DNA of 63,976 nucleotides, the filler included, from Reclinomonas americana ATCC 50394 (lineage: Eukaryota): NCBI GenBank assembly GCA_048213135.1. It is 51 parts of 51 records of this genome, joined end to end, with 100 filler letters (N's around TTAATTAATTAA, not from the genome) between each part and the next. Parts side by side here need not be neighbours in the genome. Positions count along the whole stretch, not along the records: positions 27,759 to 28,915 come from AFZH01026284.1; positions 29,016 to 30,172 come from AFZH01026285.1; positions 30,273 to 31,426 come from AFZH01026286.1; positions 31,527 to 32,681 come from AFZH01026287.1; positions 32,782 to 33,937 come from AFZH01026288.1; 46 more parts are not named here. One strand, given 5' to 3'. Position 1 is the first letter of the stretch, and each line of letters starts with the position of its first letter. The notes under the pieces were generated by a model that made no database searches, was not told the origin of the DNA, and saw only the letters and a program-made list of their open reading frames with translations. The translations under genes were made by a program, and so were the position numbers. Positions 27,759-33,937 of the stretch are shown piece by piece.

Positions 27759-28915
27759 CCTAAAGCAAGACTCATCGACAACATGCATCATTTGACGCGC
27801 AGACATCTTCTTCAGCAAGCCAGCGATGGTGTTGGCCTGGAACACGTCGTTAGCGACACTAATGTCGATAGTCACTTGCCCCTGCGTTGTGTGTGTGTGT
27901 GTGTGTGTGTGCACATATGCATGAGTAACCGAACAAATTGAAACAGACAAAAATGTCGATATCAACCTCTTCCACCCGACCGTGTGTGGTAATGATGGCG
28001 ATAATTAAGCGAAGCAGATGCAGCGCCATCACCGAGAAGAAGACGAGGCGTTTCCTATCTGCGTGGCTTACTCTGCCGAGACTCAGCTTCCCCATCTATT
28101 TCATGATCAAGATTAAAAGCAGATTAGAATTCTACGAATGTTGAGTGTCAGCACGCGTACCACGACCCAACTCACCGCTCGTTTCCCAAGGGCAGTTGCA
28201 GCACTCGCTTTCTTCTCCTCCTTGCCGTCCTTTGCGGCCGAGGACTGAAAAAATCAAGAAAAGAATTACACTCATGCAGCGATCAAGTTTGCCTTGCAGG
28301 CATGCACTCACCTTGGGTACCTCCACACGCACTGACACTCCGCTTGCCTGGCTGTTGCTGCCGCTAGCACTGCCGCTGCCGCTACCACCACCGCCACCAC
28401 TCTCTGCACCGGCCGCCTTCTCAAACTTGAAGTCTTCCTTGCTCACAAGCCCAAACTCGAGAAGCTGATCGAACGATTGCTTGACATGTTTCTCGCGAAA
28501 GAGACGGCGCACCTGCGCTCCTGTCTTAATAGAATCCATGGAGCGAAGATGGAGCATTATCTCCCTGCAAGCAGAGAAAGTGATGAAAAAAAGCGCAGCG
28601 AACGAAAGCGCGCGCAATGCCACAACAACAAGTACCGTCTCTCGGCAGGTGACGTGCCAAAGTGCATGCTGATGACAGTCTGGAGCACACTCCTGACGGT
28701 GTCTTGAATCGACTGTGCAAGCGCCCTGCAGAATCAAAAATTGTCAATTGCAATACACAAAATGCTAATTTGCAGACAAATGAGGACATTCATACCTGCG
28801 CAGTGCCAGGCGCTCTCCAGTCATTGCCGAGAAACTTTTCATCGTGTTGCCCAGAATGGTGTCTGCACTGTCGAGCAACTCGTTCACCGCCGGAGTGCGC
28901 TTGCCGCGTGGCGTT
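27759..28915 (-). CDS. Uncharacterised eukaryotic gene fragment, haplotype A (6 exons; introns 28795-28726, 28635-28565, 28311-28245, 28175-28096, 27966-27882)
   Basis: Splicing at these GT-AG sites gives one open frame TPRGKRTPAV...ALAQSIQD...EIMLHLRS...MGKLSLGR...GQVTIDIS. Confidence 0.8.
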
Positions 28916-29015
28916 NNNNNNNNNNNNNNNNNNNNNNNNNNNNNNNNNNNNNNNNNNNNTTAATTAATTAANNNNNNNNNNNNNNNNNNNNNNNNNNNNN
29001 NNNNNNNNNNNNNNN

Positions 29016-29670
29016 AACCGCAGGTGATGTAACGTTGGAGCTGGGACTTCAACGCGATGTTGACGTGCGACATCGCATCCTCTCTGCAGCGCAAAGGAAT
29101 GTCGCGGCCCCAGAAAGCCTATAGTTTGTAACAGCAGGAACAATCGGTAAGATAAACTGCACCACCAGCAACGGACACACTACACGGGCGCGGATCGAAC
29201 GCAACATACATGGTTTTCCGTTGCTCCGGTGGCGCAAGCTCTTTCACATAGTTGACCAACTCGGACTTGTCCCACCGGAACAGATCTGCAAGCGGCGGGA
29301 TCAGCTCAAGGGAAGTCGGTTCCATCACACAAAGCTGACAAGATGGTGCCAACACGCACCTGTAGTGACGACTGCCGGCGTCTTCTGCACCACTGCTTTC
29401 TCCTTGTCACGCAGTTGATTCTCCTTGTCGAGCAACTTGATCTTCTCGTCGAGCAACTTGTTCTCCTTGTCGAGCAACTTGTTCTCCTTGTCACGCAGTT
29501 GATTCTTCTCGTCGCGCAACTTGTTCTCCTTGTCGAGCAACTTGCTCTGCATGTCGGCCCAGAATTGCTTGTCGCCCGCAGTCGCGGCTGCCTTCCAACT
29601 CTGCGCGGCCTCGTCAATCTTGCTCTGGACCTCCTTGATCTCGCGCTCTACATCGCGGAGTGATTGCTGA
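29016..29670 (-). CDS. Eukaryotic gene fragment with 7-aa (21-bp) DKENKLL/DKENQLR heptad repeats
   Basis: Exon EIKEVQSKIDEAAQSWKAA...FWADMQSKLLDKENKLRDEKNQLRDKENKLL...; tandem repeat at ~29400-29545. Confidence 0.65.
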
Positions 29671-30120
29671 ACTCCAAGCACTGCAAGGCAATAATGACAC
29701 GCCAGCGGTGAGACATCACAGTCCAGCGACAGCACGGAAAAGGTCGCGCTCACATTCACTCGAATCTGTGACAGATGCTGATGGCGAGAGGAACTTGTCA
29801 GATAATGTCAATGTACACACACACACACAACACACACGTGCACACACACACACCAGTTGCTGACATGAACAGCCGCTGCTGAAGCCGATCTGTAAGCGAC
29901 CCCAGACACCTGGCACCGGTGACCATGGCGACGGCGGCACAAAGCGTGCGAACGGGCGCAGAGCAGCACACACGCCTGTGCGTGACGGAACACCTGCCCA
30001 AATCACAAGAGCTGAGGTGATGAAAGAGAAAGATGGATGATAGGTGGAGCGAGTGAAGAAGAGTGAGTGACGGGCTGAGAGAAGAACGACACACATGGTG
30101 CTGATGTTGAGGAAGAAAGG

Positions 30121-30172
<52 letters not shown>

Positions 30173-30941: not shown

Positions 30942-31414
30942 TCAGCGCAGCGTGACGTCGATGGTCTCCGTGAACGGGTCGATGTCGATGTTGGTCGTGA
31001 TCGCGTAACCGGATCCGGACGGGCCGGTGGGGCGGAACTGGATACGGACATTCGTGATGTCGCTGGCGGTGATCACACCGGTGATCGAGCCGTCGGGGTT
31101 CGTCGTGACGACGATGCCGATGGCGTTCACGACCTGCAGGGTGACGCCGGCATCCGGGACGATCATGACGCTGGTGCCGGCGGGGAGCAGAGCGAGGTTT
31201 CCGTTCGCATCGCTGCCCTCGACGGTGAAGTTCGTCACGTTGCCGCTCACGACGCTGACGGTTGCACCCGTGGCCCAGAAGGTCGCAGCGGGCGGTGTCT
31301 CCGACGCGGCGGCGAGCGGCGTCGCGACCGCGACGGCCACGACGGGCACCGACCACGCTGCACCCTTGACGAGGGTGCGGCGCGAGAGGTCGCGAGAGTT
31401 GGGTTGTCCGACAT
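30942..31414 (-). CDS. Secreted protein with twin-arginine-like leader (Microbacteriaceae type)
   Basis: GGAAAG RBS, ATG at 31414; MSDNPTRDLSRRTLVKGAAWSVPVVAVAVATPLAAAS followed by a beta-rich domain. Confidence 0.8.
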
Positions 31415-31526
31415 TGTCTTTCCCTANNNNNNNNNNNNNNNNNNNNNNNNNNNNNNNNNNNNNNNNNNNNTTAATTAATTAANNNNNNNNNNNNNNNNNN
31501 NNNNNNNNNNNNNNNNNNNNNNNNNN

Positions 31527-32681
31527 GTGTAGATCTGGCCAAACTGCTCAACAGCCACCAGCTTGGTGCCGTCGCTGCTGGAGGCCACTGCAGTCCAGGT
31601 ACGACTGGAATCACGAGCAGTCAATGTCACGCCCGAGTCAGTGGAGGTGTAGATCTGATCAGAGCTTGCTACAGCCACCAGTTTGGTTCCGTCACTGCTG
31701 GAGGCCACTGCAGTCCAGTTACGACTGGATCCACGAGGCGTCCATGTCAAACCAGAGTCAGTGGAGGTATACATCTTGTCGAGTTGCACCACAGCCGCCA
31801 GCTTGGTGCCGTCGCTGCTGGAGGCCACTGCGGTCCAGTTGCGAAGGGAATCACGAGCCGTCCATGTTACGCCAGAGTCCGTGGACGTAAAAAGCTGACC
31901 GTTGGATACAGCAGCAACTAATTTGGCGCCGTCACTGCTGGAGGCCACTGATTGCCAACTGCGCGCGGATTCACGAGCAGTCCACGTCACACCAGAATCT
32001 GCAGATGTGTGTATCTGCCCGAATTTCACCACAGCCACAAGCTTCGTGCCGTCACTGCTGGAGGCCACTGCCTGCCAGGTACTCTTCCCATGGAGTCCCT
32101 GGGAAGTCAATCCAGTCCACGTCACGCCAGAGTCAGTGGAGGTATACATCTGCCCGTTGCGAATCCCAGCCACAAGCTTGGTGCCGTCACTGTTGGAGGT
32201 TACTGATAGCCAGTCACGAGTGGAATCACGAGGCGTCCATGTCACACCAGAGTCAGTGGAGGTGTAAATCTGACCACCAAGCACCACAGCCACGAGCTTG
32301 CTGCCGTCACTGCTGGAGGTGACTGACCACCAGGAGCGACTGGAATCACGAGCTGTCCAGTTTGCACCAGAGTCGGTTGAGATGTAGATCTTACCTCCAA
32401 CTGCAACAGCCACCAATGTGCTGCCGTCACTGCTGGAGGCCACTGATTGCCAACCGCGATTGGTCTCACGAGCTGTCCATGTTACGCCAGAGTCGGCAGA
32501 GGTGTAGATCTGCCCATTAATCACCACAGCCACCAGTTTGGTGCCATCGCTGCTGGAGGCCACTGAAATCCAGTTGCGATTGGATTCACGAGGCGTCCAC
32601 GTTGCGCCGGAGTCCGTGGAGGTGTAAATCTTGTCTCCCTGAGCAGCCGCGACAAGATTGCTGCCGTCACCGCTGGAGGCC
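31527..32681 (-). CDS. BNR/Asp-box repeat beta-propeller protein, internal fragment (probably bacterial)
   Basis: About ten 40-aa (120-nt) repeats W..VASSSDG.KLVA....QIYTSTDSGVTWT; no introns. Confidence 0.85.
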
Positions 32682-32781
32682 NNNNNNNNNNNNNNNNNNN
32701 NNNNNNNNNNNNNNNNNNNNNNNNNTTAATTAATTAANNNNNNNNNNNNNNNNNNNNNNNNNNNNNNNNNNNNNNNNNNNN

Positions 32782-33937
32782 CCCAAAGCAAGACTCATCG
32801 ACAACATGCATCATTTGACGCGCAGACATCTTCTTCAGCAAGCCAGCGATGGTGTTGGCCTGGAACACGTCGTTAGCGACACTAATGTCGATAGTCACTT
32901 GCCCCTGCGTTGTGTGTGTGTGTGTGTGTGTGTGCACATGAGTAACCGAACAAATTGATCATGAAACAGACAAAAATGTCGATATCAACCTCTTCAACCC
33001 GGCCGTGGGTGGTGATGATGGCGATAATTAAGCGAAGCAGATGCAGCGCCATCACCGAGAAGAAGACGAGGCGTTTCCTATCTGCGTGGCTAACTCTCCC
33101 GAGACTCAGCTTCCCCATCTATTTCAAGATCAAAAAAAAGCAGATTAGAATTCTAGTGTCAGCACGCGTACCACGACCCAACTCACCGCTCGTTTCCCAA
33201 GGGCAGTTGCAGCACTCGCTTTCTTCTCCTCCTTGCCGTCCTTTGCGGCCGAGGACTGAAAAAATCAACAAAAGAATTACACTCACGCAGCGATCAAGTT
33301 TGCCTTGCAGGCATGCACTCACCTTGGGTACCTCCACACGCACTGACACTCCGCTTGCCTGGCTGTTGCTGCCGCTAGCACTGCCGCTGCCGCTACCACC
33401 ACCGCCACCACTCTCTGCACCGGCCGCCTTCTCAAACTTGAAGTCTTCCTTGCTCACAAGCCCAAACTCGAGAAGCTGATCGAACGATTGCTTGACATGT
33501 TTCTCGCGAAAGAGACGGCGCACCTGCGCTCCTGTCTTAATAGAATCCATGGAGCGAAGATGGAGCATTATCTCCCTGCAAGCAGAGAAAGTGATGAAAA
33601 AAAGCGCAGCGAACGAATTCGAAAGCGCGCGCAATGCCACAACAACAAGTACCGTCTCTCGGCAGGTGACGTGCCAAAGTGCATGCTGATGACAGTCTGG
33701 AGCACACTCCTGACGGTGTCTTGAATCGACTGTGCAAGCGCCCTGCAGAATTCGAATCAAAAATTGTCAATACAAAATGCTAATTTTGCAGACAATTGCA
33801 AATGAGGACATTCATACCTGCGCAGTGCCAGGCGCTCTCCAGTCATTGCCGAGAAACTTTTCATCGTGTTCCCCAGAATGGTGTCTGCACTGTCGAGCAA
33901 CTCGTTCACCGCCGGAGTGCGCTTGTCACGTGGCGTC
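32782..33937 (-). CDS. Uncharacterised eukaryotic gene fragment, haplotype B (allele of 27759-28915)
   Basis: Co-terminal, near-identical copy; exonic differences are nearly all synonymous. Confidence 0.85.

Follow-up and report, generated by a model that had tools for sequence, protein, structure and literature searches.

Uniform inverted triplications of 3-bp words at a few loci of the Reclinomonas americana ATCC 50394 assembly

Introduction

What process turns a three-base word, XYZ, into XYZ-rc(XYZ)-XYZ, i.e. the word, its reverse complement and the word again, and does so repeatedly within the short introns of a single gene? The question is raised by two copies of one gene, carried on two contigs (A and B) of the genome assembly of the eukaryote Reclinomonas americana ATCC 50394 (GCA_048213135.1). 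The whole stretch of DNA analysed (the window) is 63,976 bases in length and consists of 51 contigs of 1148-1168 bp each, arranged in descending order of size and joined by 100-bp linkers (N44-TTAATTAATTAA-N44), so features that span a linker are meaningless. The 9-mers in question, termed XrX here, are 6 bp longer than the single word from which they would derive. A preliminary description of the window held that this form dominates the indels between A and B, and attributed it to a very active cut-and-paste element or to a dedicated break-repair or template-switch pathway. In the sequence itself the pattern holds up, and chance is excluded as its cause; the evidence comes from three contigs of a fragmented assembly.

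Indels between the two gene copies

Contigs A and B are the sole similar pair among the 51 (match of at least 150 bp), at 94.7% over 1176 columns. Their global alignment has 1131 aligned columns with 15 mismatches and 9 gaps, which measure, in order, 6, 6, 2, 10, 6, 6, 8, 1 and 6 bp, seven of them being 6 bp or longer. All five 6-bp gaps are exact XrX events, in which the word abuts its inverted copy with no spacer (Table 1). The 8-bp gap at A 28745 obeys the same rule only if 2 bp of it are put down to an AC slip, which leaves a 6-bp change, and is listed as a probable sixth event. The repeated word is 3 bp in six of six events (CAT, TGA, GAA, GAA, CAA and CAA), and no +4 or +8 analogues are present between A and B. 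Each copy carries XrX words for which the other has the single triplet.

The seven 9-mers listed in the preliminary description are present in the sequence, and at the positions it gave. Its claim that seven of eight non-slip indels follow the rule holds for five clean cases and for the compound 8-bp gap, but not for A 28101, which differs from B by a substitution. Treating the latter as an indel was rejected, as the best alignment has one substitution, and the site can be read as an indel only at the cost of two gaps (6 and 4 bp) and a mismatch. The pair (TCATGATCA in A, TCAAGATCA in B) may represent an older XrX event shared by both copies and later mutated. With five of nine gaps clean and one compound, the statement that XrX dominates the indels of this locus stands.

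One large gap, a 10-bp indel, breaks the rule, and no direct or inverted template for it was found within 300 nt. It adjoins a perfect 10-bp palindrome (TAGAATTCTA) that is common to both copies in intron 4 (28123-28132 and 33144-33153). Only two differences between A and B look like slips, the 1-bp gap (a T) and the AC within the 8-bp gap. Slippage or tandem duplication does not produce the XrX form, as the preliminary description also argued: the first three inserted bases read as rc(XYZ) and not as a direct copy of the word. By our own arithmetic, a random 6-bp insert would have this form in 1 of 4096 cases and a 6-bp deletion between 3-bp repeats in 1 of 64, and five consecutive cases under the latter odds would have a probability of about 1e-9. 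These figures exclude chance.

Table 1. Positions of the gene copies, XrX words and other features within the window
Feature	Position	Strand or intron	Remarks
Contig A, one gene copy, 6 exon pieces	27759-28915	-	spliced frame open
Contig A, GT-AG introns 1-5	28726-28795, 28565-28635, 28245-28311, 28096-28175, 27882-27948	-	model
Contig B, second copy of the gene in A	32782-33937	-	spliced frame open
Contig B, introns 1-5	33743-33817, 33576-33652, 33256-33322, 33119-33186, 32905-32971	-	model
XrX in A, CAT-ATG-CAT (CATATGCAT)	27914-27922	intron 5	6-bp gap; B has single CAT
XrX in B, TGA-TCA-TGA (TGATCATGA)	32956-32964	intron 5	6-bp gap; A has single TGA
XrX in B, GAA-TTC-GAA (GAATTCGAA)	33615-33623	intron 2	6-bp gap; A has single GAA
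XrX in B, GAA-TTC-GAA (GAATTCGAA)	33748-33756	intron 1	6-bp gap; A has single GAA
XrX in B, CAA-TTG-CAA (CAATTGCAA)	33793-33801	intron 1	6-bp gap; A has single CAA
Probable XrX in A, CAA-TTG-CAA (CAATTGCAA)	28745-28753	intron 1	inside 8-bp gap
XrX 9-mer in A (TCATGATCA)	28101-28109	intron 4	B counterpart TCAAGATCA at 33124-33132, one substitution
10-bp indel, present in A	28134-28143		breaks the XrX rule
Ten XrX 9-mers of the second locus	6909-7373	-	starts at 6909, 6949, 6965, 7043, 7054, 7071, 7239, 7257, 7294, 7365
Bacterial-like contigs	36545-37698, 1-1168, 10126-11287, 18953-20113, 30273-31426, 34038-35191, 50330-51480

Gene model and divergence of the two copies

The predicted gene has five introns of 70, 71, 67, 80 and 67 nt in A (355 nt in total) and of 75, 77, 67, 68 and 67 nt in B (354 nt in total). 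Short GT-AG introns were modelled in this gene only. The predicted exons amount to 802 nt and give a single open frame of 267 codons in A and B alike. Under this model all nine gaps are intronic, in agreement with the preliminary description, which had placed every event in introns. The exons show 11 differences, of which 8 are synonymous, 2 are non-synonymous (both no more than 11 nt from contig ends) and 1 lies outside the frame. The ratio of 8 synonymous to 2 non-synonymous changes indicates that A and B are gene copies under selection and not error-ridden reads. Over introns 1, 2 and 5, which total 208 nt in A, the copies differ by six XrX words and by no substitution.

The divergence between the two copies is a mosaic. 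Exon 5 (27949-28095) carries six differences, all synonymous, while exons 2-4 (412 nt, within 28176-28725) show none and introns 1, 2 and 5 are free of substitutions. The distribution of these differences suggests recombination or gene conversion between diverged copies, and A and B could be alleles, recent paralogues or sequences from two strains. Searches for relatives of the gene product were negative: Pfam returned no family for the four exon pieces scanned, a word-based homologue search with exon 3 found no relative, an exact 30-mer of exon 3 had no match in metagenome scans, and the exon-3 peptide gave 590 pattern matches in those scans with no true relative among them.

A second locus rich in XrX words

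A further concentration is found in contig 6332-7496, where all ten XrX words fall within one open reading frame (ORF; 6882-7496, minus strand) that stays open for 205 codons. The words occupy all three phases, and those in phase encode PWP, DID, ELE, VHV and ELE. Among 5000 codon shuffles of this ORF the mean number of XrX words was 0.25 and the maximum 4, against the 10 observed. Palindromic hexamers are also increased three-fold in the ORF (30 vs 10.6 expected). Across the contig as a whole there are 23 XrX words with one mismatch where 10.8 are expected, an excess that suggests older, decayed events.

A Pfam scan of the ORF gave no family. An exhaustive HMMER search recovered three proteins, the best being a repeat protein of 5697 amino acids that matched in 21 stretches at about 30% identity; this match is too weak to tell whether the XrX codons are insertions. 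The idea that the three contigs rich in XrX words derive from a separate organism was rejected, since a principal component analysis of trinucleotide frequencies puts A, B and contig 6332-7496 inside the main cloud of eukaryote-like contigs.

Distribution of XrX words across the window

A raw count gave 72 XrX words in the window against 27-30 expected, or 55 non-simple 9-mers against 15.5-22.3. In a control, any X-m-X 9-mer was found to be enriched about 1.9-fold, owing to period-6 and low-complexity sequence. The count was therefore refined to isolated X..X pairs or runs only, with expectations taken from triplet frequencies. So counted, the 41 remaining eukaryote-like contigs (i.e. apart from A, B, contig 6332-7496 and seven bacterial-like contigs described below) have 15 XrX words vs 13.5 expected (P = 0.38), the bacterial-like contigs have 0 vs 3.1, and the three hot contigs have 10 vs 0.97 (P about 9e-8). 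A window-wide excess was accordingly dropped as a candidate, having vanished in the 41 contigs after the X-m-X control, and with it the expectation in the preliminary description of an excess across introns generally. XrX words are concentrated at a few loci.

The signature is also specific in form. The 12-mer analogue with a 4-nt unit is not enriched in the window (2 vs 1.8-2.3 expected), nor are palindromes in general (836 palindromic hexamers vs 865-880, and 249 palindromic octamers vs 255-274), so the feature is one of a 3-nt unit with zero spacer.

Origin of the insertions

What has to be explained is an exact form with a fixed 3-nt unit, found in both gene copies, confined to introns in A and B, and clustered at a few loci. 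The reading ranked first, to which a probability of a little over one in three (0.37) is given, is that XrX words are excision scars, left either by a transposase-like nuclease or by an element that duplicates 3 bp of its target and hops locally. From the form of the words we infer the breaks, the hairpins, the element itself and insertion as the direction of change. A break would give two ends that share one terminal 3-bp word. Each end would then be sealed into a hairpin and opened again 3 nt or more inward of its tip, so that the reopened ends would bear short palindromic overhangs, the same idea as the palindromic (P) nucleotides in V(D)J joints. With the left overhang terminating in rc(XYZ) and the right in XYZ, pairing through the triplet and fill-in would yield XYZ-rc(XYZ)-XYZ, and pairing in the other register would restore the single word. 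This geometry, with both flanks hairpinned and opened 3 nt in, had been put forward in the preliminary description and as reasoning it works on paper.

The simplest source of such ends would be the excision of a cut-and-paste element whose insertion duplicates 3 bp of target and whose departure leaves the flanks hairpinned; a nuclease derived from a transposase and working with this geometry would serve equally well. Such an element would have come and gone repeatedly at a small number of loci. Linked transposition produces local bursts of events, and such local hopping would explain the clustering of the XrX words. The +6-bp scars would survive where they are harmless, in the introns of A and B and as in-frame two-codon additions in the ORF of contig 6332-7496, so selection would explain the intronic and in-frame positions.

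Two aspects of the words themselves point in the same direction. A covalently closed hairpin that is opened off-centre places a word directly against its reverse complement, whereas fold-back priming needs a loop. In the five 6-bp gaps and in the 8-bp gap rc(XYZ) abuts XYZ, and a palindrome with zero loop argues for hairpin opening rather than fold-back priming. In addition the unit is always 3 nt, with no excess of 4-nt units or of palindromes in general, which argues for an enzyme of fixed geometry, for example one that cuts with a 3-bp stagger.

Several results weigh against scars of excision. No interspersed repeat recurs among the 51 contigs. Pairs of terminal inverted repeats (TIRs) flanked by a 3-bp duplication occur at the level of chance (3 vs a mean of 0.95 and a maximum of 3 in shuffles), as do CACTA-type ends (2 vs 1.9 in shuffled sequence), which come with no extended inverted repeat. 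A Pfam scan of the longest 72 of the 184 ORFs of at least 130 amino acids found no transposase family, and no element-occupied allele is seen in the window. These searches gave no sign of the active element proposed in the preliminary description; they covered 59 kb, a small sample, and their outcome is weak evidence. The number of events is a further difficulty. Six or seven cycles of insertion and excision would be needed in about 355 nt of intron, set against 15 substitutions in 1131 columns, and ten more in 470 nt of coding sequence in contig 6332-7496. Known footprints are usually heterogeneous and XrX scars are uniform; we know of no demonstration of flank hairpins for the superfamilies that make 3-bp duplications; and no target preference is visible among the XrX triplets.

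The main rival, somewhat doubtful but close behind in rank, is a short-range template switch or a processing of hairpins during replication or break repair, independent of any transposon. A 3' end that has copied XYZ would make a U-turn for exactly 3 nt on the complementary or displaced strand and then resume at the first base of XYZ; in the four-point scheme, points 1 and 2 coincide at the word's end and points 3 and 4 at its start. Such a process requires no element, which fits the empty searches for repeats, TIRs, CACTA ends and transposases, and the triplets track the local base composition without a target motif. The insert is the reverse complement of nearby sequence, as the four-point model demands. 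Template switches reported for great apes create perfect inverted repeats, and those with point 4 before point 1 resemble a single insertion (PMC7954356), while extensions of hairpins or pseudo-palindromes are described from yeast mutation-accumulation lines (PMC13493898). The regularity of the XrX events speaks against it: with loose polymerase errors the switch points and lengths should vary, but in six of six cases the copy is 3 nt with zero offset, no +4 or +8 changes separate A from B, and words with a 4-nt unit are not in excess. A general replication error should also occur genome-wide, wherever DNA is neutral, but no excess is seen in the 41 other contigs and the events are limited to a few loci. 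The rate given for wild-type yeast is low, at 0.0042 complex events per Gbp per generation (PMC13493898). Finally, stable hairpins are not expected at the sites, whose folding energies (0 to -2.9 kcal/mol) are like those of shuffles. Between a transposon and a process of repair or template switching, the transposon-type reading is ranked first by a small margin.

An enzyme-driven process targeted to certain loci with no resident transposon, for example a domesticated nuclease of the transposase type whose breaks have a 3-bp stagger and hairpin ends, is less likely again. If it existed, it would turn any XYZ into XYZ-rc(XYZ)-XYZ at more than the local substitution rate, reshape introns, and lengthen tolerant proteins in frame by pairs of codons (of the PWP, DID, ELE and VHV type); proteins would vary in length as a result, and XrX would be a dominant indel class not described before.

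It is improbable that the words are an artefact of library preparation, amplification or low-coverage assembly, with read-level chimeras surviving in contigs of about 1.15 kb that may be built on very few reads. The assembly is fragmented and contaminated (seven bacterial-like contigs), the XrX events sit in stretches that otherwise have no substitutions, and no intact XrX word is common to A and B, all of which such an origin would accommodate. Against it, no sequencing or assembly error known to us inserts rc(XYZ) plus XYZ at the 3-nt scale. The events occur only in the 355 nt of intron and not in the 802 nt of exon, as selection predicts, and the frame in contig 6332-7496 stays open through ten XrX words. 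The one-mismatch variants of that contig suggest age, and the 48 other contigs of the same assembly have no excess. Least probable of all is an ancestral long form that was shortened by palindrome-aided 6-bp deletions between two 3-bp direct repeats: deletion between short direct repeats is common and contig 6332-7496 shows that dense XrX sequence is possible, but this only shifts the question, as six or seven words in 355 nt would still need a maker, none is kept in both copies so that (by our own arithmetic) the ancestor would have needed many more, and the sites lack stable folding.

Comparison with known systems

Hairpins on flanking DNA are documented for hAT, Transib, Mutator-like elements (MULE) and RAG, where the hairpins are opened by enzymes of the host and footprints remain after end joining (PMC5499845). 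In P nucleotides, one to three bp of germline sequence are repeated in inverse orientation (PMC3528771). The footprints of hAT, Transib and MULE elements and the P nucleotides of RAG-mediated V(D)J joints resemble XrX in having a loopless palindromic junction, derived from the last bases of the flank and completed by host end joining (PMC5499845, PMC3528771, PMC2175297). They differ in that the duplications of hAT, Transib and MULE elements are of 8, 5 or 9-10 bp, whereas the XrX word is 3 bp in all six events. Footprints in these systems and in RAG joints are also usually varied, with 1-3 P nucleotides, whereas the XrX unit always equals the putative 3-bp duplication. No mobile element with TIRs was found in the 59 kb searched.

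CACTA/EnSpm, PIF/Harbinger, Zator and Academ elements have in common with XrX a 3-bp word on both sides of the scar. For Arabidopsis CACTA elements the 3-bp duplication is confirmed and several footprint variants are reported (PMC6379663). The XrX scar holds two copies of a 3-bp word, a putative target duplication for which no occupied site is seen, and ends of the form CACTA/G ... C/TAGTG are no more frequent in the window than in shuffles (2 candidates vs 1.9). PIF/Harbinger elements prefer TAA or TTA as target, and neither is found among the six XrX triplets.

Among repair-type processes, the short-range template switch of the four-point model shares the in-place reverse-complement copy of adjacent sequence and the resulting perfect inverted repeat (PMC7954356). 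The switches described there are longer, variable in length and rare, whereas XrX would be a fixed 3-nt U-turn that dominates a locus. The forward-inverted-forward topology is also that of origin-dependent inverted-repeat amplification (ODIRA) in yeast and of the human DUP-TRP/INV-DUP rearrangements (duplication-inverted triplication-duplication), but the events in these reports are on the scale of kb to Mb, three to five orders of magnitude larger, and need pre-existing inverted repeats (PMC4689423, PMC4352052). Snap-back synthesis by polymerase theta or in synthesis-dependent microhomology-mediated end joining (SD-MMEJ) places inverted copies of the flank at repaired breaks (PMC2943611, PMC5728401). 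It differs in needing a loop and in giving variable inserts, whereas the inverted XrX copy abuts its template without a spacer. The 'palindromic insertions' of PMC2997562 were set aside as unrelated, since they concern an element of roughly 90 bp.

Novelty and significance

The preliminary description knew of no account of the form as a dominant indel class. Plant transposon footprints with inverted copies of the target duplication have long been known, so the idea of an inverted footprint is an old one, but the dominance of a single exact form at a locus may be new. The literature searched, with subscription journals and older papers outside its scope, contained no account of the exact +6 form as the main class of indels at a locus or as something that repeatedly inserts two codons.

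If real, the process leaves a mutation signature of single-base precision that exceeds substitutions in some introns (6 vs 0 in 208 nt), and by adding two codons at once to a coding region it would provide a mechanism for in-frame protein growth. The scar would be readable, allowing past breaks or transposon visits to be counted, and could serve to gauge how much elements move locally, or where breaks concentrate, in a little-studied eukaryote. If the words are an artefact, they represent a type of error that assemblies and variant callers should be made to filter out. Either way, alignment-based indel models that assume slippage or random inserts misdescribe these loci.

Other features of the window

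Seven contigs (Table 1) are bacterial-like, with a G+C content of at least 64%, no microsatellites, and bacterial genes, and they look like bacterial contamination. A permease encoded at 36547-37698 has 94-95% identity to Microbacterium proteins. The majority of contigs are eukaryote-like and contain (GT)n and (CT)n microsatellites. Contig ends are often formed by these or by related repeats (e.g. 12653-13813, 35292-36444, 59084-60231), and the assembly appears to break at simple repeats. An all-against-all BLAST of the contigs was swamped by simple-repeat matches, and an Rfam scan of the window found nothing.

Recognisable eukaryotic genes in the window include PTR2, eIF2A, LCAT, WD40, ANTH and a protein kinase. 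The eIF2A fragment (17994-18488, minus strand; Pfam E = 4.6e-6; Atlas 0.97) was confirmed by the Atlas search as eIF2A and as eukaryotic. It has no word-sharing relative at E <= 1e-5 in a collection of 5.8 billion proteins, so this eukaryote may have no close sequenced relative in that collection. Contig 31527-32681 carries an unbroken frame of 384 codons with repeats of about 35 residues and BNR/Asp-box motifs, and its product shows a Sortilin-Vps10-like match (E = 1.4e-15).

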